From the IMG/VR virus record IMGVR_UViG_3300023184_000029, positions 32,001 through 96,000 of that record: 64,000 nucleotides of DNA, one strand, 5' to 3'. Source of the stretch: a virus. Below are positions 45,258-63,301 of the stretch, piece after piece. A model generated the notes under the pieces. That model did not search any database. It was given only the letters and a program-made list of their open reading frames with translations, and was not told the DNA's origin. The position numbers were made by a program, and so were the translations under genes. The first letter of the stretch is position 1, and each line of letters opens with the position of its first letter.

Positions 45258-45337
45258 GTAAGTCCTTATGAATACTAAAGTTACGACAAAATTTTGCGGC
45301 CCGGCTCGTCGTAAGTCGTTATGTTGCAAGTACTTAC
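45258..45337. repeat. R1 80-bp double-palindrome module, copy 1
   Basis: GTAAGTCCTT-N7-AAAGTTAC end; 26-bp linker; GTAAGTCGTT-ATGTTGC-AAGTACTTAC. Confidence 0.9.
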
Positions 45338-45363
45338 GTCTAGTGAACCGTTTCGCAGCAATC

Positions 45364-45411
45364 AAAAGAGAAGGCCGCAGCCAGTTTCCCAGCTACGGCC
45401 CTCCCCCTTTT
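45364..45411 (-). terminator. intrinsic terminator after the DUF932 gene
   Basis: GGGAGGGCCGTAGC..GCTGCGGCCTTCTC followed by TTTT. Confidence 0.8.
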
Positions 45412-45429
45412 CATCGTGACACGAAAAGA

Positions 45430-46377
45430 TCAGACGGCGTTCGCAAACTCCACTGCGGTATTGAGTGCTTTGACGTTATCAACCCCATTCTGTCCGAACC
45501 AGAGTGAGTCGAGGCGATTGCTCACCGTGCGACCCTTGCTATAGTTCAGATACTCATTGAAGCCATTATAGGCAGCCCACCATGTTCCACGAACATTCGT
45601 AGCACTCTGCTTCGGGCCTTCCACAAGCGTCAAGATTTCATCCATAATATTACGGGTACGAGTCTTGATATCTTCGTCCGGGGTCTTATCAATCCCCAGC
45701 AGAATCTTGACATACTTACGAATATCGTTCTGATTGAAATCCTTAGAGGCGAGGAACCTATACTGTTCCGCAGTCGCCTCGAACTGCACGTTGATATTAT
45801 CCATGATGTCTCGCACGTTATCCAGATTTGTTTTGCTGGAGCGTGTGTGACGAATCCGAATCAACTGGCTGTCCTTGTTGGAGTGGGCAGCAGCGAGAGT
45901 ATTCACGCAGACCACGCGGATCGGAGTATATCCGACGCGGATCGACGTTGTACCGTCGTGGCTGTTACTCAGCAGGATAAACTTGCTCACCTCATCGCCG
46001 GGAACAATTTCGCTGTTCGCACGATTGAGTTGAGCCAACACCCAAACCTTCTCGCCCTCACTGAGCGAACCGGCGGTGTGCAGTTGGCACTCGCCAGCGT
46101 CCAGAAACGGCTGGAACCAATCAAAAGCATCTTGATTCTGGAGAGGGGTATAACGCGGACCCACAACTCCCAGCACCCTATTATCGGTCTTACGGAAAGT
46201 CGCCTTGGCGTTGACTTCCTCGCCTTCCGACGTAAACAACGGCTTCGTACCAACTTCCCAATCCAGACCAGCAGCGGTAATCGCCTCAGAAATAGAGGGA
46301 TTCTCATCGAGCTGCGTACCCTCACCATGCCAAGGGGTAGCACCAACAAACATCATCTTTTCGACCATAGCAGGCAT
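45430..46377 (-). CDS. DUF932/DUF945 phage/plasmid protein (TIGR03299-like)
   Basis: TPWHGEG, AAGLDWEV, Y.PLQN.DAF, TAGSL..G.KVW, NSHDGT, TPIRVVCVNTL, T.WAAYNG..EY. Confidence 0.88.
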   Translation of the reverse strand: MPAMVEKMMFVGATPWHGEGTQLDENPSISEAITAAGLDWEVGTKPLFTSEGEEVNAKATFRKTDNRVLGVVGPRYTPLQNQDAFDWFQPFLDAGECQLHTAGSLSEGEKVWVLAQLNRANSEIVPGDEVSKFILLSNSHDGTTSIRVGYTPIRVVCVNTLAAAHSNKDSQLIRIRHTRSSKTNLDNVRDIMDNINVQFEATAEQYRFLASKDFNQNDIRKYVKILLGIDKTPDEDIKTRTRNIMDEILTLVEGPKQSATNVRGTWWAAYNGFNEYLNYSKGRTVSNRLDSLWFGQNGVDNVKALNTAVEFANAV

Positions 46378-46420
46378 AATCAACCCTTTCGTGTTACTGA
46401 TTCTTCGTTCCGATACGCTG

Positions 46421-46449
46421 ATTCTACCATCTATTATCGGCAGTGTCAA
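46421..46449 (-). promoter_or_regulatory. sigma70-type promoter with GCCGATA
   Basis: TTGACA-17-TAGAAT. Confidence 0.85.
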
Positions 46450-46478
46450 GGGGCAAACTTGCGGAAAAATTTCGTGAC

Positions 46479-46558
46479 GCAAGTCGTTGGTATATAAGCA
46501 CTTACGTCGGGCGGGGCCGCCCCGGCTCGTCCTAAGTCTTTTGGTGGCTTAGGTTTAG
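46479..46558. repeat. R1 module, copy 2
   Basis: GCAAGTCGTT-GGTATAT-AAGCACTTAC; 26-bp linker; second palindrome. Confidence 0.9.
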
Positions 46559-47041
46559 GAGCGGAGCCTTTAGATCACGCACACACCATTTAGATCCTTC
46601 TTCATCCGGCCTATATGAACATTCATCTGGAAGATAGCAATAAATACCCTTGCAAATTGCTCTTGGATATTCATCACTAATAGTATTTTTAATTCTTCTT
46701 ATCGTTTCTCCAGAGCAAATAAGATCATCAATAACCACATATTGAAAAGGAGCAACGCCCTCAGTTCTAAATTCACTGTAGCATTTTTCATCTTTGCGAA
46801 TAATTAAAATGTGTTTATCAAGCAATTCAGCAATTTGTGGAACAACCATCAAACCACTAATACCGCAGCAAGCAATAGTGTCAAACTGATTTTTAATTTT
46901 TCTAAGATCACAAACAGCCTTTATAATTATCTTATTACGCTCTTTATGATTTAGCACACGGCAAGTGTGGCTAGCACCTTGAATAACTTTACCGTCTGGA
47001 GTACGACGAAAATCATCGGGCTTTTGGCTCAAAACATTCAT
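46532..47041 (-). CDS. phosphoribosyltransferase-like protein
   Basis: IACCGISGL, YVVIDDLICSGETI. Confidence 0.75.
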   Translation of the reverse strand: MNVLSQKPDDFRRTPDGKVIQGASHTCRVLNHKERNKIIIKAVCDLRKIKNQFDTIACCGISGLMVVPQIAELLDKHILIIRKDEKCYSEFRTEGVAPFQYVVIDDLICSGETIRRIKNTISDEYPRAICKGIYCYLPDECSYRPDEEGSKWCVRDLKAPLLNLSHQKT

Positions 47042-47046
47042 ATAAG

Positions 47047-47125
47047 TGTGGATGGCTGGATTCGAACCAGCTTTCAAGAAAGAAAGGATAAAGAAAAGAG
47101 TCTAGTCCCACCTAGAAGCATCCAC
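47047..47125 (-). ncRNA. tRNA-like RNA with a pyrimidine-rich tract in place of the anticodon arm
   Basis: GTGGATG/CATCCAC 7 bp; TCTAG-GTGGGA-CTAGA; GCTGG-TTCGAAT-CCAGC; A73. Confidence 0.7.
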
Positions 47126-47130
47126 AAAAA

Positions 47131-47301
47131 TCAGCAATCATCTTCCGTTATATCAGGATAGTAATTCTTTCCATAAGAAGGAACCTCATCATCTTTTTCT
47201 TCATCCATCCAAGGTTCTTCATCTAGACCAAGATCATCGGCATTTTCTACCAATTCATCATAGTCATAATCATACTTTTCGTAATCATCACTATAACGCA
47301 T
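47131..47301 (-). CDS. small acidic protein
   Basis: 23 of 56 residues D/E; AAGG RBS; promoter upstream. Confidence 0.65.
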   Translation of the reverse strand: MRYSDDYEKYDYDYDELVENADDLGLDEEPWMDEEKDDEVPSYGKNYYPDITEDDC

Positions 47302-47355
47302 AATCAACCTTCCTTTCTTTCCAACATTATACACCAACCAAACATACTTGTCAAG

Positions 47356-47428
47356 TGGGGGCGGTGGGACTCAAACCCACGATAAACGGTTTAAAAGACC
47401 GCTACTTTAGTCGCTAAGTTACACCCCC
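47356..47428 (-). tRNA. trnK-UUU: tRNA-Lys(UUU)
   Basis: Cloverleaf; anticodon loop CTTTTAA. Confidence 0.9.
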
Positions 47429-47468
47429 AAGGGTTTTCTAGTATACCATTCTTTTTTTATTTGTCAAG

Positions 47469-47540
47469 TGACCCCACGGAGAATCGAACTCCGATCTACA
47501 GCGTGAAAGGCTGTCGTCCTAGCCGTTAGACTATGGGGCC
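47469..47540 (-). tRNA. trnE-UUC: tRNA-Glu(UUC)
   Basis: Cloverleaf; loop CTTTCAC. Confidence 0.92.
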
Positions 47541-47580
47541 AGCCATCGCAACTCAAACGTCAGCCTCCGAAGCTTAAAAG

Positions 47581-47656
47581 TAGGGCGTGTACGAGTCGAA
47601 CGTACCTATGATCACCTTATAAGAGTGACGGATGCAACCGGCTTACCTTACGCCCC
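47581..47656 (-). tRNA. trnI-UAU: tRNA-Ile(UAU)
   Basis: GGGGCGT/ACGCCCT; TCACT-CTTATAA-GGTGA; GTACG-TTCGACT-CGTAC. Confidence 0.85.
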
Positions 47657-47714
47657 GTGTCTTTCAATCATACTCTACTTATCGGCAAGAGTCAAGTCTT
47701 GTCTTTAGAAAATC

Positions 47715-47794
47715 CTAAGTCGTTATCTGATAAGCACTTACGTCAAAAACGGCCCGCCGAATTTTTCCTAAGTCTTTTATTTTCAAATAGTTAT
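47715..47794. repeat. R1 module, copy 3
   Basis: CTAAGTCGTT-ATCTGAT-AAGCACTTAC; 26-bp linker; second palindrome. Confidence 0.9.
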
Positions 47795-47796
47795 AA

Positions 47797-47883
47797 CGGA
47801 ATCTGAGGGATTCGAACCCCCGGAGGATTTTAACCCTCGGCGGTTTAGTAAACCGCTGCCTTAAACCACTCGGCCAAGATTCC
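47797..47883 (-). tRNA. trnS-ACU: tRNA-Ser(ACU)
   Basis: Long variable arm, G73; GCGGT-TTACTAA-ACCGC. Confidence 0.88.
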
Positions 47884-47885
47884 AA

Positions 47886-47957
47886 CTCTGTGAGTAGGAC
47901 TCGAACCTACAACCGGGCGGTTAACAGCCGCCAGCTCTACCATTGAGCTATCACAGA
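47886..47957 (-). tRNA. trnN-GUU: tRNA-Asn(GUU)
   Basis: Cloverleaf; loop CTGTTAA; G73. Confidence 0.93.
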
Positions 47958-48031
47958 CCATCTTGCTTTCGAACCCGTTTGGTGTATTATACTTTAGGGT
48001 TCGATCAATTATTATAGCTGGATATCTTATA

Positions 48032-48529
48032 ATGTCAATACCAGAATTTAAAATTTGCCCAAAGTGCAAAGAAAAAAAACACAAAACCGAATATCATACA
48101 AGAAAAGACAAAGGATATACTTATCTAAAAAGCTATTGTAAACAATGTTCATCATATACCAAAACTAGAGCAGAAATACTAAAACAACAATATAACTTAT
48201 GTTCTTGTGGTAATATAAAGTCTAAAAAGGGTAAAACTTGTAAATATTGTAGTCGTATAGATCATACAGAACTATTAATAGAAAATTGCAAACACCCTAG
48301 ACGTATTGTTAAAAGAACAATAATTAGAGACAAACTTATAGATCATAAGTGTTCAGAATGTGGAATAACTAATGAATGGAATAATAAGCCTATTGTCTTA
48401 CAACTCGATCATATTAATGGTATAAATAATGATAATAGATTATCTAATTTAAGATTTTTATGCCCTAATTGCCATTCACAGACCGAAACATTTTGTGGTA
48501 GTAATATTAAAAATAAAATGCCCAGGTAG
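48032..48529 (+). CDS. HNH homing endonuclease inside the tRNA cluster
   Basis: CSECG..LQLDHING..DNRLSNLRFLCPNCHSQT. Confidence 0.9.
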   Translation: MSIPEFKICPKCKEKKHKTEYHTRKDKGYTYLKSYCKQCSSYTKTRAEILKQQYNLCSCGNIKSKKGKTCKYCSRIDHTELLIENCKHPRRIVKRTIIRDKLIDHKCSECGITNEWNNKPIVLQLDHINGINNDNRLSNLRFLCPNCHSQTETFCGSNIKNKMPR

Positions 48530-48590
48530 GACTCAAACCTACAACCCGCTGATCCAAAGTCAGCTGCTCTATCAATTAAGCTACTGGGCA
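48518..48590 (-). tRNA. trnQ-UUG: tRNA-Gln(UUG)
   Basis: U1-A72; loop CTTTGGA. Confidence 0.88.
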
Positions 48591-48591
48591 G

Positions 48592-48664
48592 AGCCGATGG
48601 CCGGGAACGATCCGGCGACAGGCAGTTTACAAAACTGCTACTCTACCAACTGAGTTACATCGGC
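48592..48664 (-). tRNA. trnT-UGU: tRNA-Thr(UGU)
   Basis: GCCGATG/CATCGGC; loop TTTGTAA; atypical T loop ATCGTTC. Confidence 0.85.
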
Positions 48665-48680
48665 AATCTACCTATTATAA

Positions 48681-48872
48681 TCAATAGTGATAATCCTCGC
48701 AAGCCCGACGCTTTTCAGCGGATCGGGTTCGCAACCGCTTGGGGCGATTGTCCATAACGGTATCCCGATGTTCCTTGTGTCCCGTTGACAACTCCCAAGG
48801 CTTCTTGACCTTGACCTTGATTTTGTTGTGGTTGCGTCGTGGGCGAATATCGTCGTTGAGGTGGTGCATAGT
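48681..48872 (-). CDS. small basic protein
   Basis: MTMHHL..KKPWE..RPKRLRTR; overlaps the 3' end of ORF 48715-49122 in another frame. Confidence 0.55.
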   Translation of the reverse strand, partial: TMHHLNDDIRPRRNHNKIKVKVKKPWELSTGHKEHRDTVMDNRPKRLRTRSAEKRRACEDYHY

Positions 48873-49140
48873 CATGCCATATTCCATTGTCGTGTAAATA
48901 AAAAACTTTGTCTATGTTAGGATCATAAGCCATTAGACAGTATTGTATAGGATACACAATCTTTTGTCTAGATGGTATTTTTGGAATTTTTAAATCACCT
49001 TTTTGGTAATCTTTAACGCCAGTATAGGCCAAACCTAACAGAGCAATCAATACCCCAATCCATTGGATCACGCTGTCCCATCCTTTCCGTTTAATCATAT
49101 CATAGTTATCGGCACTTGTCAACCTTTTCTTTAAAAAATC

Positions 49141-49220
49141 CTAAGTGGTTGAGGCCATTGCACTTACGTCAAATTTGGCCGGCCCCGCTCGCCCTAAGTG
49201 CTTATGCAGTAAGGGTTTGC
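49141..49220. repeat. R1 module, copy 4
   Basis: 80 bp, 27-26-27 geometry. Confidence 0.9.
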
Positions 49221-49228
49221 GGTTAGTT

Positions 49229-49465
49229 TTAGTCGTTACCTAGCGTCCATCCACCCATCTTTGCGATTACGTTCAGTTTCAAAACTTCCGTTTGCTTATC
49301 AGCAGTTAGATAGTCTCTAAAACCACGCTCATCAATATAGAAGTATTCATCTAATGTATCAAACTTATTACTCTCAAACAAACTTGTAACCGCCGCTTCA
49401 ACAGAACTTTTATCTGTAGAGTAAATTAGTTCCAGAGTACCACACTTGATATAATATTTAGACAT
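49229..49465 (-). CDS. hypothetical protein
   Basis: ORF. Confidence 0.65.
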   Translation of the reverse strand: MSKYYIKCGTLELIYSTDKSSVEAAVTSLFESNKFDTLDEYFYIDERGFRDYLTADKQTEVLKLNVIAKMGGWTLGND

Positions 49466-49476
49466 TTTTCAATTCC

Positions 49477-50001
49477 TTAGTAGGCATATTCATTTTTATG
49501 TTCAAACTGTCCATAAATATCTTTATCCCAACCACCAAAACTCTCAACCCCAACATCTATCACCACAGGAACCCATGCTCCGTTTCTTCTAACATATCCA
49601 AAGTTTCCTCTATGATGATCGGAGTAGTCCAGCCCACATAGGTGTAGTTCCCAAACTATTTCCCCAATGATAGTACAGTTACTGCAACCACTCTCAAAAC
49701 AGTCTCCGTCACAATACTCGTAACTACACTGTGACATCAATCTAGCAATTTCTGTCAAATAACCATACTCTGTCAATCCTTGATTACTATTTCGGCGAAT
49801 TCTGCCAACTTGACCGTACACACGCGGAGCCAAGTCTTGCTCTGCCAGAATACTTTGAACTTTATGAGCAAAATCTGCTTCCTCTTTAGATTTAAACTCT
49901 TTGAAACCCACACGTTTACGATCTATCTTTCTGTCTTTGATAATATAGAAAGCATTTTTACTTCCCTCATCATCATACAAACCCAAATATATATTAGTCA
50001 T
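49477..50001 (-). CDS. minimal protein-kinase-like fold protein
   Basis: DHHRGNFGY, VIDVG; paralog of 6420-6944. Confidence 0.55.
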   Translation of the reverse strand: MTNIYLGLYDDEGSKNAFYIIKDRKIDRKRVGFKEFKSKEEADFAHKVQSILAEQDLAPRVYGQVGRIRRNSNQGLTEYGYLTEIARLMSQCSYEYCDGDCFESGCSNCTIIGEIVWELHLCGLDYSDHHRGNFGYVRRNGAWVPVVIDVGVESFGGWDKDIYGQFEHKNEYAY

Positions 50002-50178
50002 TATTTATTTCCGTTCTAATATATTCCATATCTTGATCCGGACAATAGATACACATAGGTGTACCATTTTCACTATACCACCAAGGCTCTACATAAACGT
50101 GTTTATCACACTCGGGACACTCCCATCTACTTCTAACTTTTTTATCGTCAATAGTTTGCCAGTTTTCCATAGTAATCC

Positions 50179-50892
50179 TTAGTGAGCAGGAAACAATACA
50201 TTAGCCAAACCACGAACACACAAGTCACAGTGTACGCTATTTTTGGTTTTTGTGCAAGTGACAACTCCACGACCACGACGAATTTCCGGGCAAGTGATAA
50301 ACTTTTCACCTTCCAGCACAACCAGTTTCGGTAGTGCTGATCGCCATGCTGCAACCTTATTCTTGCCACGCGGACGCTTAGGGGCAATTTTAGTATCACT
50401 ATCACACCATGCGAACAGTTTGAAACCAGCAGCCTTAGCCTGTTTCATATCTTCACCATCATGGATACTAGCATACATATTGATATACTTGCCAAGTTCC
50501 ATAGACAATCTGGTATCATAAATATGGGTATAAGCCCACATGGTCGGCAGACTACCACCACTAGCAAGAATATTCTCACAAGCCCACAATACATTATCAA
50601 CATATTCATTGTCAAGTTCACCATACTTGAAAAAGTCGCCACGCTCATGCCAGCGAACATCTTTATTTTTCTTGACGGCATCCACCAGCATGGAGCGAAT
50701 ACGATTCTTTTCTGTAACAAGATTTTGCATACCGGCAGGACGAACACCGGGATAGATATTTTCCAAATCTTCTGCATAGCATCCGTTACCGAGAAAATCA
50801 CAATCGGACGGACAACTATCACCAACCGGACGCGAAACCACAATACAATTTTCCTTACCCAACTTATCATTACCATTTGCAGTTTTCATCAT
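50179..50892 (-). CDS. Gp88-like protein (radical-SAM-related phage family)
   Basis: SCP.DC..CYA, VRWHERGDF, AYTH, YAS, C-terminal C..C..C. Confidence 0.65.
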   Translation of the reverse strand: MMKTANGNDKLGKENCIVVSRPVGDSCPSDCDFLGNGCYAEDLENIYPGVRPAGMQNLVTEKNRIRSMLVDAVKKNKDVRWHERGDFFKYGELDNEYVDNVLWACENILASGGSLPTMWAYTHIYDTRLSMELGKYINMYASIHDGEDMKQAKAAGFKLFAWCDSDTKIAPKRPRGKNKVAAWRSALPKLVVLEGEKFITCPEIRRGRGVVTCTKTKNSVHCDLCVRGLANVLFPAH

Positions 50893-50969
50893 TATTCTCC
50901 CTTGTCTACCGATTCTACACTATATTATCGGCTAGTCAAGACCAATTCTTGAAGAAATTATTTTTTGAT

Positions 50970-51049
50970 GCAAAGGCTTGTGGCATAAGGACTTACGTCA
51001 AACGGGGCCGCCCGGATTTATCCTAAGTGCTTACTGGCGAAGGGTTTAG
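50970..51049. repeat. R1 module, copy 5
   Basis: 80 bp, 27-26-27 geometry. Confidence 0.9.
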
Positions 51050-51106
51050 AATCGAATCTGTTTTGGTGTATATAGAAGTAGTTAAACTTTCTATTAGGAG
51101 ATTAAT

Positions 51107-51592
51107 ATGGTCAATTGTAGACATTGCGGTAAAGAAACAAATAATCCTAATTTTTGCTCTAGATCTTGTGCAGCTAAAACAACTAATAAAATACCTAAAC
51201 GCAAGAAAAAGATTAATCATTGCTCATTGTGTGGCAAAGAGACAGGTTTTTTTAGAAGGAAATTCTGTATAGATTGTAATCCTATGAATAAAGATTGGAA
51301 TTCTATAACTTATGGAGATGCTATCCAAACTCGTAAATATCAAAAGAATTCTAGGATCAGGAATCTATCCAGAAAAATCTATAAATCATCTGGTAAACCA
51401 GAATGTTGCATGATTTGTAAATACGATAAACATTTTGAAGTATGTCATATTAAAGCTATTTCCTCCTTCCCTAAGACTGCAACAGTTGGAGAAATAAATC
51501 ATATAAATAATCTTATAGCTCTTTGTCCCAACCATCATTGGGAATTAGATCATGGAGACTTAATACTGCCGGAAGGATTTGCACCCTCGTAA
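51107..51592 (+). CDS. HNH endonuclease
   Basis: CRHC..FCSRSC; CMIC..EVCHIK..NLIALCPNHHWELD. Confidence 0.88.
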   Translation: MVNCRHCGKETNNPNFCSRSCAAKTTNKIPKRKKKINHCSLCGKETGFFRRKFCIDCNPMNKDWNSITYGDAIQTRKYQKNSRIRNLSRKIYKSSGKPECCMICKYDKHFEVCHIKAISSFPKTATVGEINHINNLIALCPNHHWELDHGDLILPEGFAPS

Positions 51593-51636
51593 ATCAACTT
51601 AGAAGGTTGACGCCTAATCTACTCGGCCACGGCAGC
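51564..51636 (-). tRNA. trnR-UCU: tRNA-Arg(UCU)
   Basis: GCTGCCG/CGGCAGT; TCAAC-CTTCTAA-GTTGA. Confidence 0.87.
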
Positions 51637-51659
51637 GTATATGTATTATATCATATCCA

Positions 51660-51850
51660 CTCAACGCCGCAAGCCCACATGGCGTCCCATGTAGGCTATA
51701 CGGTTTGATGGTGGGATCACTTTACCATCGTAATATTACTAGTAGCAGACCCCTTCCCGGCAACCACGCCGGTTATTAGTTGGTTAGACTCTACTAGGTG
51801 GGTCTGAGCCCACTCCATTACGCGGGACGAATCCCGCCGCACTATGCCTA
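51660..51850 (-). ncRNA. candidate structured ncRNA
   Basis: At least five hairpins plus a long-range CTAGTAG/CTACTAG stem in a non-coding gap. Confidence 0.5.
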
Positions 51851-51887
51851 AAATCTATTTATACTGACATAGTCCAGTTTATCAAGA

Positions 51888-52139
51888 TCAAGCCTCGACG
51901 GTTTCCTTCTCAACCTTACCAGAGTGGGCATCACCGGCCTGCTCCGCAGTCACGCCCGTGACCCTAGCCCGCCAGACCTTATAACCCTGCTCTGAAAAAG
52001 CCTTGACCTCGCCAGCCTTGACATTCGCATGAACATCGCCAGGGAGGCTATCGCTCAGGCAAGAACGAATCGAATCAACCACACCGTCACGATCAAGCTC
52101 ATCCGCAACCACATCAACCACAAAGCTAAACTTCTTCAT
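51888..52139 (-). CDS. hypothetical protein
   Basis: GGAAAGG RBS; promoter upstream. Confidence 0.7.
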   Translation of the reverse strand: MKKFSFVVDVVADELDRDGVVDSIRSCLSDSLPGDVHANVKAGEVKAFSEQGYKVWRARVTGVTAEQAGDAHSGKVEKETVEA

Positions 52140-52339
52140 TGTAAAAAACCTTTCCAAAAGTGTTATCGAACCAAGTAAAGTAATTATACACACCAAACAT
52201 CACTTGTCAAGGGCTAAGTCGAACTTTGTAGTTTGCGATCAACCAGCGTCTTGTCGTGTGATGCTATCATTCTACCATATAGTATCGTCATCGTCAAGGT
52301 GTTTGCATGAATGATTTTTTGGTATTCTCATGATTTGTT

Positions 52340-52419
52340 CTAAGTTGTTGAAGTATAAGGAGTTACGTCAAATTTGGCCGGCCCGCCTCGCCGTAAGTGT
52401 TTTACGGACAAGGCTTTAG
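52340..52419. repeat. R1 module, copy 6
   Basis: 80 bp, 27-26-27 geometry. Confidence 0.9.
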
Positions 52420-52420
52420 G

Positions 52421-52792
52421 TCAAGAGAGAAAGCCCTCACAACCCAAAGTGGTCAGTTCACGCAGCAACTTCTCAGCCGCTTCGGGCGTCTTGAAAGTAA
52501 TGCTCTGCCTAACGTTCGGTTGAGCAGGAACGAACCTATCATACTTCCAGCCACCCACCATACCATCGGTCCACTCCTTACTTTCCTTCAAACCCCAGCC
52601 AGTAGCAATCCGAATCGCCTTGATGCAAGGGATGCGGTTGTCCAGAGTCATGCCGCCAGTGATCGTCACCTGTCGCCTCTGGTTCACGCCCAGAGCAATC
52701 TCAATAGCGTTGACGATACGATCATGCAAATCATTGCTAGCCGTATTAGCAATAGCAACAGCCTCGGCCACAGTCACCTGAATACTAATCAT
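52421..52792 (-). CDS. protein with a ribosomal L7/L12 C-terminal-like domain
   Basis: RIPCIKAIRIATGWGLKESKEWTD resembles the bL12 KI.VIK.VR..TGLGLKEAK..V motif. Confidence 0.7.
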   Translation of the reverse strand: MISIQVTVAEAVAIANTASNDLHDRIVNAIEIALGVNQRRQVTITGGMTLDNRIPCIKAIRIATGWGLKESKEWTDGMVGGWKYDRFVPAQPNVRQSITFKTPEAAEKLLRELTTLGCEGFLS

Positions 52793-52794
52793 CT

Positions 52795-55909: not shown

Positions 55910-55971
55910 AATTCTCTCCCTTTCTGCTCAATATACTCTATTAAAAACCTTTTGTCAAGCCCCGACTACTG

Positions 55972-56015: not shown

Positions 56016-56233
56016 AGTTATGCGTGATTCTTTCCACGATGATATTATCCCCATAGTGCTTTTCCGCTAATCTAATAGCATGATAGGTACTCTGGGCCTC
56101 GACATAACCCAAAAGCTTATATCCTCTCATTACCATATAAGTATCAGTATTCACGCTTCCTCCTCCGATCCTGCGAACATTTCCTCTTTTGATTTCCCAT
56201 ATTCTACACTACTATTATCGGCCTGTCAAGAGC

Positions 56234-56779
56234 CTAAACCTGAGTTTTTCTTTTAAGAAGTTTCCCACACGAACCGTATTTTTCCACAAAACTATCAAAA
56301 TTATCATGATAGTACATATTCATATTATCACAATAACTATCAAAAACGGGAGTATATCCTTCCTTACCCCTTTTAGTATTATTTTCCTCAGCCCACAAAT
56401 CGATCATATTAGAATGGGTCCACTTAATCTTTACGCCCGTCGGAGTCAGGAATATTAAAAAGACCACATCGCACAATTCCGGCTTAATCTTTTGAAAATA
56501 ATAATAAGAACGATTTCCCCTGATCTTAATCGAAGACATTTTAACTTCAACTTTAATCCTATCATCCACAAGAATATCAAAATCACTATTAGAACCATAA
56601 TGCTGCACAATAAACCCACTCATCATAAGTTTTTTAACCAGCATCTTCTCGCCAAACAAACCCCTGTCTGTACTATTTAACAGACTAATGCGATAGGACA
56701 GCTCATCCTTTTCTGTAGAATAAATCTTTTCCTTGACCAATTCAGCCTCGATCTCTTCAAAATCCGCAATAGTGAACAT
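56234..56779 (-). CDS. PD-(D/E)xK nuclease-like protein
   Basis: GE..V..L..G; DFDILVD..KVEVK. Confidence 0.6.
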   Translation of the reverse strand: MFTIADFEEIEAELVKEKIYSTEKDELSYRISLLNSTDRGLFGEKMLVKKLMMSGFIVQHYGSNSDFDILVDDRIKVEVKMSSIKIRGNRSYYYFQKIKPELCDVVFLIFLTPTGVKIKWTHSNMIDLWAEENNTKRGKEGYTPVFDSYCDNMNMYYHDNFDSFVEKYGSCGKLLKRKTQV

Positions 56780-56868
56780 TATTATGTCCTTGTTGGCAGT
56801 TTTCGTTCCTCGATAGTCTTAGGATACCATCACTATCGGCAGTTGTCAATAGATTTCTAAAATTAATC

Positions 56869-56948
56869 GTAAACCCATATGGCTTAAGGAGTTGCGTCAA
56901 ATTCGGCCCGCCGCCCGCGTCCTAAGTCCTTTGGTGTCAAAGGGTTAG
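56869..56948. repeat. R1 module, copy 10
   Basis: 80 bp, 27-26-27 geometry. Confidence 0.85.
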
Positions 56949-56979
56949 GAGTTGGGCATTCTTTAGGCAGAAACTGCTA

Positions 56980-57384
56980 CTAGAACAGCAGGCTAGCAAC
57001 CTTGCTGGTAAACAGCGTACCAGCCAGCAAAGGCTTGCGACAATTAGTCACACGCTCTGCATAGAAGTTACGCACCTTTCCGTCGAACGTGCGACAAGTT
57101 ACCAGATGGTTCGTGCGAATGAAATTGGGATCATTAGCACGATACCGACTTCTGCTATTCAGCTTGCGAATTTGATCAGCAGTAAGCGTCTGCTTACCGA
57201 TCACCTTAGCAAGGAATCGCTCATGAGTTCCATGCAATGGCTGTTCGTAGGTAAAGTTGAAAACCTGACCCTCAACAGCATTAGCAAGACTAGTTCTAGA
57301 ACCGCCATAGACAGCATAGAACAGAAAACTGGCAACAACAGCAACAGCAGCAAGAAGACCACCAACCACAAACAAATTATCCAT
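56980..57384 (-). CDS. membrane-anchored hypothetical protein
   Basis: N-terminal TM; AAGGG RBS. Confidence 0.7.
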   Translation of the reverse strand: MDNLFVVGGLLAAVAVVASFLFYAVYGGSRTSLANAVEGQVFNFTYEQPLHGTHERFLAKVIGKQTLTADQIRKLNSRSRYRANDPNFIRTNHLVTCRTFDGKVRNFYAERVTNCRKPLLAGTLFTSKVASLLF

Positions 57385-57452
57385 AATCAACCCTTTCGTT
57401 AGGAAAACCAATCGTTCAACTCTCAGCATTCTACAACTATTATCGACATTTG

Positions 57453-57746
57453 TCAAGCCTCAACTTGAACAAAATTTTCTTTCCAATACTCTTGCATTTC
57501 CGCAAGGTTCACCGCACTATCATTCCACGACACACCGTCGGGCGTTTCATAGAAAATAGCACTGGTATATTTCCATGAAGTATTCAAAAAAGCATCGCTA
57601 GACAAATCACGAAGCCTAGCCATAAAATCTTTATAGTCTTGACACACGGCCGCAAATTCGTTCAGACCTTGATCATTACTAATCCAAAGGCATACGTTCC
57701 ACGTTTGGTAGTTCGCATAGCCGTTATAGGTTCCGTCAGGACTCAT
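57453..57746 (-). CDS. conserved small phage protein (YNGxxNxxTW family)
   Basis: YNGYANYQTWNV.LWI.ND; ETPDGVSW. Confidence 0.7.
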   Translation of the reverse strand: MSPDGTYNGYANYQTWNVCLWISNDQGLNEFAAVCQDYKDFMARLRDLSSDAFLNTSWKYTSAIFYETPDGVSWNDSAVNLAEMQEYWKENFVQVEA

Positions 57747-57829
57747 ACTTCACCCCTTCTTTCATATTGTCATTCTACCATCTATTATCGACCAATGCAA
57801 GAGGGAATCTTGAGAAAATTTTTTTAGAC

Positions 57830-57909
57830 GTAAAGTGTTGATACATAAAGAGTTACGTCAAATTTTTGCGGCCCCGCTCGCCCTAAGTCGTTATCTGACA
57901 AGGGTTTGC
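57830..57909. repeat. R1 module, copy 11
   Basis: 80 bp, 27-26-27 geometry. Confidence 0.9.
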
Positions 57910-57917
57910 GGATAGTT

Positions 57918-58145
57918 TCACTCAAAGTCTACAAATATAACTTGAGCATAACCCCTAGGCTTAATTGTAAAGCCATCGCCAAAATCATAAGTATCACTCT
58001 TAACGCCCGTCATGCCAGCCAGTTTCTTAGCATGATATGTTACGCTACGCTGAGAGTCATTCTTGGGAACAAACTCCCAACGCTTCACCCAACCATAATT
58101 AGCTTCACCACCGAAAGTATCGGTATGAGTTACAACACATTTCAT
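57918..58145 (-). CDS. hypothetical protein
   Basis: TDTFGGEANYGWV motif. Confidence 0.7.
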   Translation of the reverse strand: MKCVVTHTDTFGGEANYGWVKRWEFVPKNDSQRSVTYHAKKLAGMTGVKSDTYDFGDGFTIKPRGYAQVIFVDFE

Positions 58146-58344
58146 ATTCCAATCTCCTCTGAACTAAAAGAACAAACATTCAAGCCACTAGCGGCCACAA
58201 CAGTATCAAACATGATACCAAGAAACTCTTGTCGGTCAACAGCATCTGTCATGTTATGTTCCGGCAAGTCTAGAACATACTCGCTCGAAATAGGCTGTTC
58301 ACCATTTTCATTTTCCACAACAATATCAAAGAATCGGCATTTCA

Positions 58345-58608
58345 TTAGTAATCTTCTCCCCCAAAGTAACCGTAATCTTCATCCGTTCCGAATCCCGCAT
58401 CACGCATGGCTGAATCAAAATCCCCATCCATGCTATCATCGTAAGAATCATATTCTTCGTTCTCCAAATCTTCTTCATCATCATCAGTAAACTGACTCTC
58501 AACTTCATGCTCCGCGTCTGGATGATAGCTTGAACTATCCTCTCCATAGAAAACAGCATCATCATCATAAGAATTATCAAAATCGTAAAGGGGATCAGGA
58601 TGGCTCAT
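58345..58608 (-). CDS. highly acidic protein
   Basis: 33 of 87 residues D/E, one Arg, no Lys. Confidence 0.7.
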   Translation of the reverse strand: MSHPDPLYDFDNSYDDDAVFYGEDSSSYHPDAEHEVESQFTDDDEEDLENEEYDSYDDSMDGDFDSAMRDAGFGTDEDYGYFGGEDY

Positions 58609-58666
58609 GTTTCTTTTCCTTTCTTATGGTCACAGTCTATCAAAAAAAACTTAGCTTGTCAAGAGA

Positions 58667-58873
58667 CTACCACCGATTCCGGCGATACTCTTCTCGCAAA
58701 TCCTCTTCCTCTTGCCTTTGGCGACGAGTAACAGCCGGACCTTCGCCGGTCAGGTAAGCGTCACGGGCAGCATCGTAACCGTCATCACTATCTTCCATCG
58801 GCTCACAATGCTCACCACAACGCGGGCAAATATCTTGAAACCGAACCAGAATACCACAGCAATCACTAATCAT
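58667..58873 (-). CDS. small zinc-ribbon protein
   Basis: SDCCG..ICPRCGEHCE; paralog at 60234-60392. Confidence 0.7.
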   Translation of the reverse strand: MISDCCGILVRFQDICPRCGEHCEPMEDSDDGYDAARDAYLTGEGPAVTRRQRQEEEDLREEYRRNRW

Positions 58874-59243
58874 CTTTCACTCTCTCTTTCTCTCACTCTA
58901 TCCTACACTACTATTATCGGCTTGTCAAATGCCTTTTCTTGAATCTTTCTAGATTGAAAGGTTGTCCGAATACTCTTCCGGTACACACTCGTCCACAACC
59001 CCAACAATGTCGGCCCAATCCCAAAAATCAACTTCCACGCTAGGATCGTCAATCGGCTCAACAACCCCTTCGCTCACCATGCCAGCCAGAATCAGATTGA
59101 TTTCATCAAAATCGTGAAGCATTGGTATTTTCCTTAGTGGTTTCCCTTGTGATGCTGTCATTCTACAGTGTTTATCGGCCAATGCAAGGTAAATCTTTGG
59201 AATTTTTTAAATATAATTCTGTGCCAAACGGGAAATATTTTTG

Positions 59244-59258
59244 TGGCACAGCTTTTGC
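59244..59258 (+). promoter_or_regulatory. sigma54-like -24/-12 motif
   Basis: TGGCACAGCTTTTGC (GG-N10-GC). Confidence 0.5.
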
Positions 59259-59271
59259 GTCGATGCTCGTC

Positions 59272-59351
59272 GTAAGTCTATGCTATCAAAGTAGTTACGA
59301 TTCGCGGGGCCGCCCCGGTTTGCCCTAAGTCTTTATAGGGCAAGGGTTTGC
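59272..59351. repeat. R1 module, copy 12
   Basis: 80 bp, 27-26-27 geometry. Confidence 0.9.
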
Positions 59352-59558
59352 GTTAAGAATTTACAATCCAAGCAACCAAGCAACCAGCCACAAAAGAAAT
59401 GGTAAGAATGATAGAATCCGAATTAATCATTATTATCCTCGCTATTCCTTACATAAAAAACCAAATCAGAAACAAACCAAGAACACAACACGCCAGCAAC
59501 AAATCCCACACCTATTTGTACCCAGTTAATATCGACCATCCTTGTCGCCTTTCTTTAA

Positions 59559-59789
59559 TTATGCGGGGTTCAAAGCATTATCCGCAAGAGTAGTAATCTT
59601 AGACCAAGCAGAATCCACAGTATTATCATCACGCAAATAAATTGTATGCTGATCGCCGGGAATATCACTAATAATAGAAACTTGCCAACCACAAGGGGTA
59701 GACCAACCACAACCCGAACGAGTAATAATAACCTCACAACCCTCAAGGTAAGTATCGGTCAATTCTCTAATTTGTTCAACAGTAATCAT
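59559..59789 (-). CDS. hypothetical protein
   Basis: AAGGA RBS. Confidence 0.6.
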   Translation of the reverse strand: MITVEQIRELTDTYLEGCEVIITRSGCGWSTPCGWQVSIISDIPGDQHTIYLRDDNTVDSAWSKITTLADNALNPA

Positions 59790-60161
59790 TTTTATTCCTT
59801 ATTCTTCCAATACTGATTTTGCAGATAATTATCAACAACACCAAAAGCCTGAGCAAACAACCAGAAAGCCACGTTAGCAAAAGCATACATGGCAAGGATA
59901 GTAAAAATCCAAGCATTTATAATGATAATATTGGTCATTTTCCAACCTTCTCTTTCTTCTGCATCATTTCCAGATAGAGTTTTTCCAACAACTTAACCTG
60001 TTTAATAGCACGATTAGTTTCCCGATCCATTCTTTCAATAGCTTTTTGATGTGAAGTTTTCATTTCTTTTTTCCTCTACTTCTTATATCGACATTCTACC
60101 GTCTAATCTTTAGTTGTCAACTAGAAAATTTTCTTGCAATATTGAAAGGTTCCCCTAGCTT

Positions 60162-60206
60162 GCTGACTATACCCAGCTTGCCCAAATCCGCAGGATTAGC
60201 TGAGAC
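60162..60206. repeat. repeat family R2, copy 7
   Basis: GCTGACTATACCCAGCTTGCCCAAATCCGCAGGATTAGCTGAGAC. Confidence 0.75.
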
Positions 60207-60233
60207 TATCAACAATCCCCAGATGACAGGAGA

Positions 60234-60392
60234 CTATGCCGCCTCACCATCATCATAACCGGGGATATAATCCGGTTCGGAATCATACGAAACAACTTCA
60301 CAATGTTCGCCACAATCTGGGCAAATCCCATGATCCATCATGATACCATCCATCTCATACCCACAGCAATCCGAAACCATCATGTCTTCCAT
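60234..60392 (-). CDS. 52-aa zinc-ribbon/acidic protein (below ORF-track cutoff)
   Basis: Translated by hand: MEDMMVSDCCGYEMDGIMMDHGICPDCGEHCEVVSYDSEPDYIPGYDDGEAA. Confidence 0.7.
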   Translation of the reverse strand: MEDMMVSDCCGYEMDGIMMDHGICPDCGEHCEVVSYDSEPDYIPGYDDGEAA

Positions 60393-60527
60393 TCTCTTAT
60401 CCTTCTTTCTTTCTGTCTTACTTCTTATATCGACATTATACCATGTTCATCTTGAGCTTTCAAGAGAAATCCAGAAATTTTATTGTCAAAAGATTTTGAC
60501 AAAACTTTTCGTAATTTTGTGGAGGTT

Positions 60528-60542
60528 TGGCACACCATTTGC
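60528..60542 (+). promoter_or_regulatory. sigma54-like -24/-12 motif
   Basis: TGGCACACCATTTGC. Confidence 0.55.
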
Positions 60543-60551
60543 TAAGTTGTC

Positions 60552-60631
60552 GTAAAGTCTTATGGGGTAAGAACTTACATCAAGCCCGGCCCGCCCCGTT
60601 TGTCGTAAGTCTTTATATGGCAAGCACTTAG
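60552..60631. repeat. R1 module, copy 13
   Basis: 80 bp, 27-26-27 geometry. Confidence 0.9.
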
Positions 60632-60825
60632 GAGATACTTTGGCGACTGCCTATAATTTCAGCAGCAATGCTTCGAATTAGAGCATCTTTCACTGCCGGA
60701 TTAGTCACGCATTCTTCCGTGAGCCTTTCGGCCAGAGAACATGATGCGTCCATCATTTCCAAAGCACCTTGCAAGCCAAGGCTCATCCAAATTTTTTCCA
60801 TCGGTGAGAACATTTGTATAGCCTT

Positions 60826-61092
60826 TCAATTCCATCCAAAGTTTTGATCGAGAAACGGTCCGTAGATCATACCCTCATCGATCCAGCACTCATTCAGTTT
60901 CGAGGTAGTGGCATCGAACCGAACACAATACATAGCTACCCTGTCCCCGATTGCTGGCAGGATGTTCACCACCACAGCCCACGCCAGATCGGCACCAATC
61001 CTTGAACCAACCTGAACCCTATCACCAATTTGAATCATTCTGTTCTCTCTTTCTTGTGTTGGTATTCTAGCGAAGTTTTTTCTGATCGTCAA
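60826..61092 (-). CDS. hypothetical protein (real start probably MIQIG)
   Basis: GAAAGAGAG RBS-like leader. Confidence 0.55.
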   Translation of the reverse strand: MTIRKNFARIPTQERENRMIQIGDRVQVGSRIGADLAWAVVVNILPAIGDRVAMYCVRFDATTSKLNECWIDEGMIYGPFLDQNFGWN

Positions 61093-61098
61093 CCCCCA

Positions 61099-61305
61099 CT
61101 ATCGGGTGGTCGCACCGTTCGCTTTGGCATACCGATACAACGCTCGCTCGTCCACCATGAAACGCTGAACACCCTTCAAATCCTTGAAATCCCAATGGTA
61201 GGTGAGAACGTCAGAGCTGACCATCCAACGGGCTTCGATGCTCGAAGTCTTCTTCAGCGTATAGCCCAACTTCTTCAACTCTTTCTCAATCGTCTTGCTA
61301 TTCAT
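61099..61305 (-). CDS. hypothetical protein
   Basis: GAGAGAGAAAG leader; promoter upstream. Confidence 0.65.
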   Translation of the reverse strand: MNSKTIEKELKKLGYTLKKTSSIEARWMVSSDVLTYHWDFKDLKGVQRFMVDERALYRYAKANGATTR

Positions 61306-61418
61306 CTTTCTCTCTCTTTCTTTCTTGTGCTATCATTATACCAGTATTATCGTCCAATGTCAATAGCCTAGATCAGAAAAAGTTTCCTTACAATGCTGTA
61401 AGGTTGGAGAAGCAAGTT

Positions 61419-61433
61419 TGGCACAGGATTTGC
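61419..61433 (+). promoter_or_regulatory. sigma54-like -24/-12 motif
   Basis: TGGCACAGGATTTGC. Confidence 0.55.
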
Positions 61434-61480
61434 TAGTGATCAGAATATAGGCAGAAACGCCTAATATGTAAGCATTGAAC

Positions 61481-61560
61481 CTAAGTTGTTGGTATATAAG
61501 CACTTACGTCAAATTTGGCGGCGAAAAATCGCCGTAAGTCCTTTGGTAGCAAGGCTTTAC
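61481..61560. repeat. R1 module, copy 14
   Basis: 80 bp, 27-26-27 geometry. Confidence 0.9.
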
Positions 61561-61590
61561 GTCGAGTTTTTTTGTACAGTGTACGGAAGA

Positions 61591-61920
61591 TCACCCCTCC
61601 GAAAAGGGGGATACTTCCTCTCCACAAGCAAGAATCGCGGTATATTGCGATTCCAGAGCAGCAACCCTTTCGGCAGAACCCGGCTTGCCAACTCTCACAA
61701 TCATGCGATCCTCACCCCCCACAAGGCGGGGATCGGCCTTTTCCTTGCGAATCTTGCCCAGATTCTTTAGGGCTTTACGATTGAACTTCAGCACCTTCTC
61801 ACTACGGATTGGGCCATACACCCCATCCGCAAGGGAGGGTTGGTGAGGAATCGCAATCCCGAGGAAGCACAGTCTGGCTTGACGCTTGGCGTTTTCGACG
61901 ATAGGGAACTTGGTTTTCAT
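61591..61920 (-). CDS. hypothetical protein
   Basis: GAAAGAGAGAAAG leader. Confidence 0.7.
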   Translation of the reverse strand: MKTKFPIVENAKRQARLCFLGIAIPHQPSLADGVYGPIRSEKVLKFNRKALKNLGKIRKEKADPRLVGGEDRMIVRVGKPGSAERVAALESQYTAILACGEEVSPFSEG

Positions 61921-62023
61921 TTTCTTTCTCTCTTTCTTCTTATACCGACATTATACAGGCTTTTCTTTAGGTTGCAAGCGAAATCTTTGGTAGTTTCCTT
62001 ACAATATCGTAAGGTTTCCCACA

Positions 62024-62038
62024 GCAAATATCGTGCCA
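62024..62038 (-). promoter_or_regulatory. sigma54-like -24/-12 motif
   Basis: TGGCACGATATTTGC on the minus strand, close to consensus. Confidence 0.6.
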
Positions 62039-62084
62039 AAAAAGAATATTTTACTTTGGCATACGATATGCGTCCAAACTTGAC

Positions 62085-62164
62085 GTAAGTCGTTGCAGCA
62101 TAAGTACTTAGAGAAAATTTTGCGGCGAAAATTTGTCGTAACTCCTTATGGGCTAAGGGTTTGC
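62085..62164. repeat. R1 module, copy 15
   Basis: 80 bp, 27-26-27 geometry. Confidence 0.9.
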
Positions 62165-62336
62165 GACTCGTTTTTCCACCTATACAGTAGTTCAGCACAC
62201 AATTCCTTAATACTATTTTTAATATTTTCTTTATCTGATTCGCTCAAAGCATATTGCAAACGAATTTGCTCAATCCTTAAAGCGGTTTGTACTGTACATT
62301 TGCTTAGTTGAGAAACTTTCATTTGAACACCTATTC

Positions 62337-62555
62337 TTATTTAGCATGAAAAAAAACATTCTCATTACCAACAGTCTTATTAGTAATGGTCACAATCCAA
62401 TTCTTTCCGCTGCCATCTTCACGCATCACACAATTGATAATACCAACATGGGCATTTCCCTTAGTGTCGATAACACACCCATACTTACCCGTTCGCATAG
62501 CAGAGAAAATCTTGTCGAGGTTATTCACTACCGGTTTATAAGCTGTTGCAAACAT
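62337..62555 (-). CDS. hypothetical protein
   Basis: GIINCVMREDGSGKNWIV motif. Confidence 0.65.
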   Translation of the reverse strand: MFATAYKPVVNNLDKIFSAMRTGKYGCVIDTKGNAHVGIINCVMREDGSGKNWIVTITNKTVGNENVFFHAK

Positions 62556-62723
62556 TAGTATTCACCCAAAGTAAAAGAAAGGAACGTAAACAAAAAGATA
62601 GACGGCCCAACCGATTAGAAACACTTGAATACCCAAGCCACTAATCATTCCGAAAGTATCCACATCATCGGGATGCTCACCAAACAAATTGTAGCAGATC
62701 CAGTTTTTCATTTTCTTTTCCTT

Positions 62724-62909
62724 TCAAGCAAATTCTTCTTCACCCTGGAAATCGTCCAGCCACTCATCGTTCGTTTCGATGTGCTCATCGGCATCACCCA
62801 TGATCGGATCCCATTCACCATCATCATAGCCTGGGATATAATCGGCCTCATCTCCATATCCCACGATCCATTCCTCGCCGTTTTCGTCAATCATCTTTTC
62901 CATTTTCAT
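62724..62909 (-). CDS. small acidic protein
   Basis: D/E-rich; contains DYIPGYDDGE, shared with 60234-60392. Confidence 0.65.
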   Translation of the reverse strand: MKMEKMIDENGEEWIVGYGDEADYIPGYDDGEWDPIMGDADEHIETNDEWLDDFQGEEEFA

Positions 62910-63221
62910 TCTCACTTTCTCTAGTATTCTACTAAGATATTTTCTATTCGTCAAGCCCGATTCATGAATGAGATAGCCTCGTCGGCACTCTTGAAAATCC
63001 CAAGCAAAATCCTCTTGCCATTCTGGTCGTGATAAACCTTAAACTTCCGGCCAATCTGAATCATCGTGAGCGTGATCATTTTCTTTTCTCCCTTTTTCTC
63101 TTGTGCTTTCATTATACAGTGTTTATCGACGCTTTCAAGAGAAATCTTTGTAATTTTTCAAATATAATTTCATGCCAAATAAAGATATTTTTATGGTATG
63201 GCCTTTGCGTCAAAAATCGTC

Positions 63222-63301
63222 ATAAGTCATTCCCACACAAGCACTTACATCAAATTTTGCGGAGTATAATGATCATAAGTTCTTATACCGTATAGGTTTA
63301 G
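63222..63301. repeat. R1 module, copy 16
   Basis: 80 bp, 27-26-27 geometry, more degenerate. Confidence 0.8.

Follow-up and report, generated by a model that had tools for sequence, protein, structure and literature searches.

Sixteen copies of an 80-bp element, here called modules, occupy an 18-kb region in the genome of an uncultured freshwater phage, each one placed just after a gene (or a tRNA) of the minus strand and ahead of the promoter that follows. Our analysis concerns a 64,000-nt window, bases 32001-96000 of the 186,542-bp IMG/VR virus record IMGVR_UViG_3300023184_000029 (CheckV completeness 100%). Megablast retrieved no close named relative of this 186-kb genome, and the rIIA-like and RuvB-like phage proteins share less than 40% identity with anything deposited. 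Across positions 44-64 kb of the window, the genes and eight tRNAs lie on the minus strand throughout. A first pattern search (TAAGTCCTT-N7-AAGGACTTA, with at most 3 mismatches) returned 15 matches between 45312 and 63247, on the plus strand only, compared to 0.06 in shuffled sequences. An 80-bp position weight matrix (PWM) scanned over the entire 186,542-bp genome gave exactly 16 modules, with none outside window positions 45257-63302. All 16 modules score without gaps (55-99 bits), and the module length is therefore invariant; the start-to-start distance between neighbouring modules ranges from 604 to 1829 bp. The first-pass annotation, which was made from the letters of the window alone, had described 16 copies of fixed dimensions over 18 kb, with variable inter-module distances, palindrome centres 53 bp apart and a GC core in the linker, and had proposed a genome-wide PWM scan as a check. 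All of these features are confirmed, and the scan places every copy inside this region.

Read along the minus strand, the elements follow one another in the order gene stop or tRNA end, distal palindrome (P1), GC-core linker, proximal palindrome (P2), AT-rich linker, promoter, ribosome-binding site (RBS) and start codon. P1 has the form CgTAAatcCTTg-N5-tAAgGACTTAgG and P2 the form CGTAAGTcCTTat-N4-cAAcgACTTAcg, with their centres separated by 53 bp, and the core of the linker between them is the GC-rich gGGccGGCC. Each module comprises two dyads of 27-29 bp, whose four half-sites follow the pattern (C)GTAAGTSSTT(G/A). The preceding stop codon or tRNA end falls 0-8 nt from the module in 8 of the 16 cases and inside it in 4, in agreement with the earlier description of modules as separating the end of one cassette from the promoter of the next. 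Although each module is nearly dyad-symmetric, one orientation scores 25-40 bits higher with the PWM, and all 16 modules have the same orientation relative to transcription. The dyad arms previously described as palindromes are indeed present, but they are systematically imperfect: arm positions 6-7 of P2 and 4-5 of P1 are usually non-complementary.

The element is lineage-wide. By a single IMG/VR pattern scan combined with the PWM, the same module was found in arrays with a spacing of about 1 kb on approximately 28 other viral contigs. Five complete or near-complete relatives contain 6-25 modules each, those with complete genomes having 12-25, always in one contiguous block of 10-22 kb, and in a relative with terminal repeats the module block spans the genome ends. 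In the distant module-bearing clades, whose core proteins are merely 25-40% identical to those of this phage, the palindrome is kept in a cleaner form, GTAAGTSSTTGA-N3-TCAASSACTTAC. The centre-to-centre spacing of the pair is fixed within these sister clades at 41/42, 50 or 64/65 bp, and their GC cores are clade-specific; in one contig (L092) the linker contains an additional small palindrome, CGTTACGATTTCGTAACG. The proposal that both palindromes lie on the same DNA face is thus valid for the present clade, with its 53-bp spacing, but the arrangement is not universal. Module-bearing contigs in metagenome-assembled genomes come from freshwater lakes and are binned into so many phyla that the bins carry no information on the host. 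Searches of deposited phages by megablast, blastn and tblastn yielded neither a close relative nor a module, and a literature search did not find the module string. The element itself is therefore undescribed, as had been supposed, whereas the general concept behind it is already known (see below).

The pooled set of 129 unique module copies, from this phage and its related contigs, revealed what is conserved in the module. The half-sites contain positions of 1.4-2.0 bits (TAA, TT, AA, ACTTA, TAAGT, CTT, AA, TTA); the 7-bp central spacers and most of the linker and core show only 0.05-0.3 bits, with constant lengths. A column-pair test found no base-pair covariation between the arms in these copies. 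Watson-Crick pairing between arms does not exceed the expectation from independently shuffled columns, and is significantly below it at several positions; positions 6-9/21-24 and 61-62/74-75 are mostly mismatched. For instance, P1 has a constant right arm, GGACTTA, and a left arm that varies as TAA(A/G)(T/C)CC without compensation, and in P2 a GC on one arm stands opposite a CG on the other. RNA folds of the whole module, computed for each module on both strands, are weak and inconsistent (z from -3.7 to +0.7), shuffled sequences fold as well as the GC core (mean z +0.17), which is trailed by TTT only rather than by a U-tract, and the minimum free energies (MFEs) of the two palindromes are just -6.3 and -4.1 kcal/mol. 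An Rfam scan of the 44-64 kb region assigned no family to the modules. This conservation of sequence in the absence of covariation, together with a core that folds like its shuffles, is not what a hairpin, cruciform, terminator or attC-like fold of the module would show. The modules are thus under selection for sequence, not for structure, and represent a double-stranded DNA site. Such a pattern is, as far as it can be read from aligned sequences, the signature of a symmetric protein that would recognise the duplex DNA sequence. The best-conserved pentamers lie at about 0, 21, 54 and 75 bp within the module, which places the four half-sites on one helical face.

A near-consensus sigma70 promoter follows each of the 16 modules, in most cases after an AT-rich linker. 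The promoters are built of TTGACA, a 16-17-nt spacer with an sCGATAAt motif located 3-4 nt past the -35 hexamer (window 45216-63138, minus strand), the -10 element (TG)TAgAAT and a purine-rich RBS. This spacer motif may be a second operator or a core-promoter recognition element. Sigma70-consensus promoters, above all those with the CGATA spacer (21 of 21 on the minus strand), are restricted to the minus strand of genome positions 40-96 kb, and the modules accordingly occupy the 18 kb nearest the promoters' upstream end, i.e. the promoter-proximal part, of a region transcribed by the host RNA polymerase (RNAP).

Module end and -35 hexamer are separated by quantised distances. In the pooled set, distances fall into classes of 17-18 nt (17 units), 27-30 nt (40) and 38-41 nt (14), with rarer classes at 48-51 nt (4 units) and 59 nt (3), and the intervals between the classes are almost empty. 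The Rayleigh R is 0.70 (n = 96) with its peak at 10.5-10.75 bp, compared to a null 99.9th percentile of 0.35, and it is still 0.66 (n = 81) once units at least 80% alike are collapsed. A period of 10.5 bp indicates that the modules are helically phased with the promoter. In the window, the 16 distances are 12, 17, 18, 18, 27, 28, 28, 28, 29, 29, 41, 82, 83, 87, 106 and 116 nt. Assuming a standard start site, the centre of P2 would lie at about -57.5, -68, -78.5, -89.5 or -100, with P1 53 bp further upstream. Recognisable sigma70 promoters in the sister clades are too few for a comparison of phasing.

Based on these observations, we favour, with moderate confidence, the explanation that the modules are paired operators or enhancer-like sites for a putative conserved factor acting at early promoters of the host RNAP, and that they serve secondarily as recombination linkers. 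The single polarity of the modules and the location of all 16 copies in the host-RNAP region support this explanation. The first-pass annotation had offered, as one of two options, a global operator array for an early region; half-site conservation without covariation, single polarity and the 10.5-bp periodicity argue for that option. Mechanistically, each module would be a double-stranded DNA binding site in which two dyad operators flank the GC-rich core, and would form the upstream part of a composite cassette consisting of the module, an AT-rich UP-like linker, TTGACA, the GCCGATAAT spacer, (TG)TAgAAT, a Shine-Dalgarno sequence and the gene. An oligomeric protein, probably a dimer on each palindrome and a tetramer on each module, may affect the host sigma70 RNAP at the neighbouring promoter in a manner dependent on the helix face, and such a factor could coordinate the entire early regulon. 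Activation seems somewhat less likely than a timed shut-off, or insulation, of early transcription, since these promoters already approach the consensus. In addition, since the modules are the best-conserved sequences of the region, they may act as crossover points for homologous recombination, by which early cassettes would be reshuffled among related phages.

Several observations weigh against this explanation. For the five upstream-most modules (59271-63221), the sigma70 promoter lies 82-116 bp away, three of them being poorly phased, and in these five units an extra TGTGCCA-N15-17-TGGCACA palindrome intervenes between the module and the promoter. About half of the strong sigma70 promoters of the region have no module. 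The spacing of 50 bp between the palindromes of one sister clade corresponds to about 4.8 turns, and some sister clades have a perfect G/C hairpin as GC core, e.g. GGGCCC-GAG-GGGCCC, which leaves room for a function of the core at the RNA level. It may also be that the discrete linker classes descend from a few founder cassettes, in which case fewer independent events than n underlie the periodicity; on the other hand, five or six linker classes that are all in phase are unlikely to have arisen by chance (p < 0.01 by our own estimate).

A further point of the same kind is that our searches for the binding protein, in which conserved early open reading frames (ORFs) were compared with Pfam, PHROGs and the Atlas and by fold, were negative. 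Pfam and PHROGs covered 20 early ORFs, of roughly 300 ORFs in the genome, and these are ORFans or have weak matches only, and the genome gave no match to HTH_3, HU/IHF, integrases or a true bacterial enhancer-binding protein (bEBP). The search for a co-occurring recombinase or DNA-binding protein, which the first-pass annotation had put forward, turned up neither among the ORFs and domain families covered. The most conserved early protein is encoded by the 141-aa ORFan g53220 (window 52795-53220, minus strand), with 81-94% identity among close relatives compared to 50-70% for its neighbours. Its AlphaFold model is confident (pLDDT 86) and mostly beta; Foldseek returned nothing at E<=0.001, the highest VIA Z was 2.4, and the PDB contains no matching fold. 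The model of g61920 is poor (pLDDT 63), and the ESM Atlas gave no usable match for either protein. The phage encodes a sigma70-family factor at genome positions 10787-11377. A search for proteins highly identical in distant module-bearing clades retrieved just two small domains, neither linked to the array. They belong to two small minus-strand proteins, at genome positions 11434-11856 and 13066-13623, whose short domains are 65-79% identical in distant clades (KPGLWENIRKKK..KPGDKDRPD; C-terminal RFGDPNM..RRKSFRARMRCD). None of the phage proteins compared comes near the palindrome in conservation, which suggests that the binder is either a conserved host factor or an undetected phage protein.

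Other explanations deserve consideration. The modules might be terminators or insulators, acting as a set of RNA hairpins or as a protein roadblock against upstream read-through, with no direct action on the promoter. They occupy the place of the stem-loop in the promoter-early stem-loop (PeSL) cassettes of T4-type phages, between the upstream stop and an AT-rich tract with a sigma70 promoter; the upstream gene frequently ends at the short distance given above, the region has no excess of canonical intrinsic terminators (15, compared to 13.4 in shuffles), and the clean G/C core hairpin of the sister clades fits this role. We nevertheless consider this explanation unlikely, as the arms do not covary, the whole-module folds are inconsistent, the core is equal to shuffles and followed by TTT only, and helical phasing with the promoter would not be expected of a terminator. 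Moreover, module 16 is preceded by a canonical terminator of its own, and so are the modules of L096, a contig of the 41-bp-spacing clade whose promoter follows about 28-31 nt after the module, indicating that the module itself is not the terminator. Another possibility would be that the modules are upstream activating sequences (UASs) for a host AAA+ activator of sigma54 RNAP, with sigma54-like motifs as the true regulated promoters. Two dyad sites separated by whole helical turns are the typical geometry of NtrC- or XylR-type UASs. The motif TGGCAC-N5-TTGC occurs four times in the 186-kb genome, in all four cases beside modules 2-5, and 58 times in the pooled loci against about 5 expected; 21 of 153 modules have it in the 160 nt after the module, in the promoter linker, compared to 2 in the preceding flank. 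Modules of L066 precede tandem TGGCACG-N4-TTGAAT motifs, and motifs in the gene direction put the palindrome centres at about -87 and -140, as in bEBP enhancers. One perfect motif in the gene direction exists here (at 62038) and 9 among the 153 modules, most others being reversed or lacking the -12 GC. However, the motif stands beside a minority of modules. The commonest arrangement (13 cases, offset 8-13 nt) points into the module, which would then occupy +1 to +80, and in several copies TATA or TTGA stands where the near-invariant -12 GC would be expected. In addition, Sigma54_DBD has no match in the phage genome, its sole match to Sigma54_activat (PF00158) is the RuvB-like protein, and 11 of the 16 modules are phased solely to sigma70 promoters. 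We regard a role as sigma54 enhancers as distinctly improbable. The sigma54-like motifs are often the arms of a TGTGCCA..TGGCACA palindrome, and sites of the form TTGGCAC[AG]-N4-TTGCT are found only beside modules, at the four locations listed in Table 1 and at window 63163-63177. A broader proposal, doubtful in our opinion although worth stating, would treat the GTAAGTSSTTGA-N3-TCAASSACTTAC palindrome, always paired around a GC core, as a pan-lineage enhancer or operator common to freshwater phage clades that diverged deeply, through which one conserved factor would control both the sigma70 and the sigma54-like promoters of the entire early regulon and define the exchange points of a cassette pool. 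That factor could be a hijacked host protein or a new phage DNA-binding fold, reading from one DNA face.

The remaining alternative is the integron-like shuffling suggested by the first-pass annotation, in which the modules would be core sites of an integron- or Xer-like recombinase, possibly encoded by the host, that moves promoter-carrying cassettes. Inverted arms around a short spacer (11-7-11) are the geometry of tyrosine-recombinase core sites, and the modules have these dimensions. The earlier statement that the window contains no recombinase can be extended to the whole genome: PF00589 (tyrosine) and PF00239 (serine/resolvase) gave no match at E<=0.1 in the CheckV-100% genome, with positive controls. 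Strand exchange by Cre, Flp, Int and Xer requires a match between the spacers of the partner sites. Among the 32 central 7-bp spacers, only 1 of 496 pairs is identical, and the mean is 4.9 mismatches in 7. Without a shared spacer or an integrase or resolvase in the genome, shuffling by a tyrosine recombinase is very unlikely. A comparison of cassette order among the relatives, also suggested earlier, gave a two-sided result: the order is largely syntenic, with local swaps and indels of single promoter-gene units, whereas mosaic junctions are enriched at the modules. In the comparison with L121, the closest relative, stretches of 97-99% identity terminate within modules or at their edges (47777, 51028, 55706 and 56905). 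Over all contig pairs, 25% of 52 block endpoints lie inside modules, compared to 5.8 +/- 3% of random positions, and 35% lie within 10 bp of a module, compared to a null of 7.5%, the enrichment of breakpoints being about 4.5-fold. The local differences in order and the block boundaries would suit a recombinase; the breakpoints, however, are spread across module offsets 1-88 rather than confined to the spacer, which argues for homologous exchange rather than site-specific cutting. This mosaicism looks like PeSL-type homologous exchange at conserved repeats. Furthermore, the swaps involve single promoter-gene units instead of whole inter-module cassettes, attC-like conservation of structure is absent in the 129 copies, and promoter phasing would be left unexplained. 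Site-specific recombination at the modules is accordingly the least credible of the explanations, and we regard it as very improbable. Just upstream of the window lies a gene for a RuvB-like Holliday-junction helicase (300 aa; genome 30327-31229, L138 784-1686, minus strand), about 38-40% identical to bacterial and phage RuvB, which is relevant to a high rate of homologous recombination.

Returning to the operator explanation, the element resembles known promoter cassettes and operator arrays more than it resembles an integron. Multi-copy repressor operator arrays are exemplified by the conserved inverted repeats (CIRs) of phiC31 and the stoperators of mycobacteriophage L5, which are single 13-17-bp elements in or near promoters or transcribed DNA of temperate phages with an identified repressor gene. 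The modules share with them the many copies of a conserved site across early intergenic spaces and the idea of one protein controlling many units. They differ in that each consists of two 27-29-bp dyads around a GC core and lies upstream of the promoter, at about -68 to -132, and the present phage has no integrase or recognisable repressor among the searches made. Upstream sites phased with promoters are known for class I CRP, for Fis at rrn P1 and for phi29 p4 (at about -82). As in these systems, the dyads are centred about 60-100 bp before the start site, at allowed positions whole turns apart. Here, however, the inferred centres are offset by about 4 bp from the class I positions of CRP, the half-sites are unrelated in sequence, another dyad is present 53 bp further upstream, and the promoters already have consensus -35 and -10 elements. 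With attC and tyrosine-recombinase core sites, the modules have in common imperfect inverted repeats that bound small cassettes and similar arm-spacer-arm dimensions. The differences are that sequence rather than structure is conserved, partner spacers are not shared, the phage genome has no integrase and every cassette carries its own promoter.

The closest parallel is provided by the PeSL cassettes of T4-type phages, which are repeated promoter-early stem-loop units (Arbiol et al. 2010, PMC2839356; Comeau et al. 2014, PMC4122927) and for which homologous exchange at conserved linkers was demonstrated experimentally (PMC2839356, PMC4122927). Both are repeated composite intergenic cassettes amid small ORFans, with the element directly before an AT-rich tract, a near-consensus sigma70 early promoter and a Shine-Dalgarno sequence; both occur preferentially at the junctions of insertions, deletions and replacements that distinguish related phages, with homologous-looking recombination whose crossovers are scattered in the cassette. 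The two also differ. While the PeSL element is a simple Gn-loop-Cn terminator hairpin, the module is a fixed 80-bp array of four half-sites with a GC core, which, given its lack of covariation, low folding energies and missing U-tract, is not a stable stem-loop. The module is also helically phased with the promoter, the promoter spacer bears its own conserved GCCGATAAT motif, and the phage is not a T4-type myovirus by close similarity, its proteins being less than 40% identical to those of named phages. An element that combines four half-sites with a GC core at constant length, in helical phase with the promoter, and that recurs in several clades, each with its own spacing, is undescribed.

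If a single factor reads the modules, that factor would be a master switch of host takeover in a widespread lineage of large freshwater phages, and the module is a ready bait for finding it. The modules offer a natural example of helical-phase control with dozens of spacing variants (18, 28.5, 39.5 and 50 bp), and they extend the PeSL idea, that regulatory cassettes act as linkers for gene exchange, past the T4-type phages with a different element. They are also of use in annotation, since a module reliably marks the early region and the boundaries of transcription units in these genomes.

Table 1. Modules, promoters and associated motifs (positions are those of the window; modules are numbered in the direction of transcription)
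Feature	Position	Strand	Remarks
Module 1 (most upstream)	63221-63302	-	PWM, 54.8 bits
Module 2	62084-62165	-	PWM, 77 bits
Module 3	61480-61561	-	PWM, 89.9 bits
Module 4	60551-60632	-	PWM; TAA of the distal half-site is the stop codon of the upstream ORF
Module 5	59271-59352	-	PWM
Module 6	57829-57910	-	PWM
Module 7	56868-56949	-	PWM
Module 8	55623-55704	-	PWM
Module 9	54703-54784	-	PWM
Module 10	53458-53539	-	PWM
Module 11	52339-52420	-	PWM
Module 12	50969-51050	-	PWM
Module 13	49140-49221	-	PWM
Module 14	47714-47795	-	PWM; abuts the 3' end of tRNA-Ser
Module 15	46478-46559	-	PWM; stop of the upstream ORF within the module
Module 16 (last)	45257-45338	-	PWM; preceded by a canonical hairpin and T-run terminator at ~45350-45410
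Sigma70-type promoter (representative)	46421-46449	-	TTGACA-17-TAGAAT, GCCGATAAT spacer motif, 28 nt after module 15
Analogous sigma70 promoters	45216-45244, 47667-47695, 49094-49122, 50912-50939, 52269-52297	-	
Analogous sigma70 promoters	53402-53430, 54645-54673, 55567-55594, 56821-56849, 57772-57800	-	
Analogous sigma70 promoters	59160-59187, 60435-60463, 61335-61363, 61950-61977, 63111-63138	-	
TGTGCCA-N17-TGGCACA palindrome	59212-59258		Between module 5 and the promoter; plus-strand arm TGGCAC-N5-TTGC points into the module
Sigma54-like -24/-12 motif TGGCACACCATTTGC	60528-60542	+	9 nt from module 4, directed into the module
Sigma54-like motif TGGCACAGGATTTGC	61419-61433	+	
Sigma54-like motif TGGCACGATATTTGC	62024-62038	-	Gene direction; palindrome centres of module 2 at about -87 and -140 from the predicted start
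Paired palindrome in sister-clade contigs			L066 (G006), L096 (G007), L069 (G008), L092 (G009), L061 (G010)

The GC content of the module region (window 44000-64000) is 40-44%, compared to 29-33% in the adjacent 36 kb (6000-42000); the low-GC part lies on the same strand as the module region and has sigma70-like promoters as well. Over the whole genome, GCGC (68 occurrences) and CGCG (36) are strongly depleted relative to about 154 expected from composition, which may reflect restriction avoidance; GGCC (212) and CCGG (240) are not depleted, and the avoidance of GGCC or restriction sites within the module cores was uninformative.

The eight tRNA genes (Lys, Glu, Ile-UAU, Ser-ACU, Asn, Gln, Thr and Arg-UCU) are located among the early cassettes, at window 47355-48664 and 51564-51636 on the minus strand, and several of them have a consensus sigma70 promoter of their own immediately in front. 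The same early region contains a Pistol ribozyme (Rfam RF02679; window 51816-51878, minus strand), situated between tRNA-Arg and a small ORF; it scores 50 bits compared to a gathering score of 34.5 (E = 1.2e-6).

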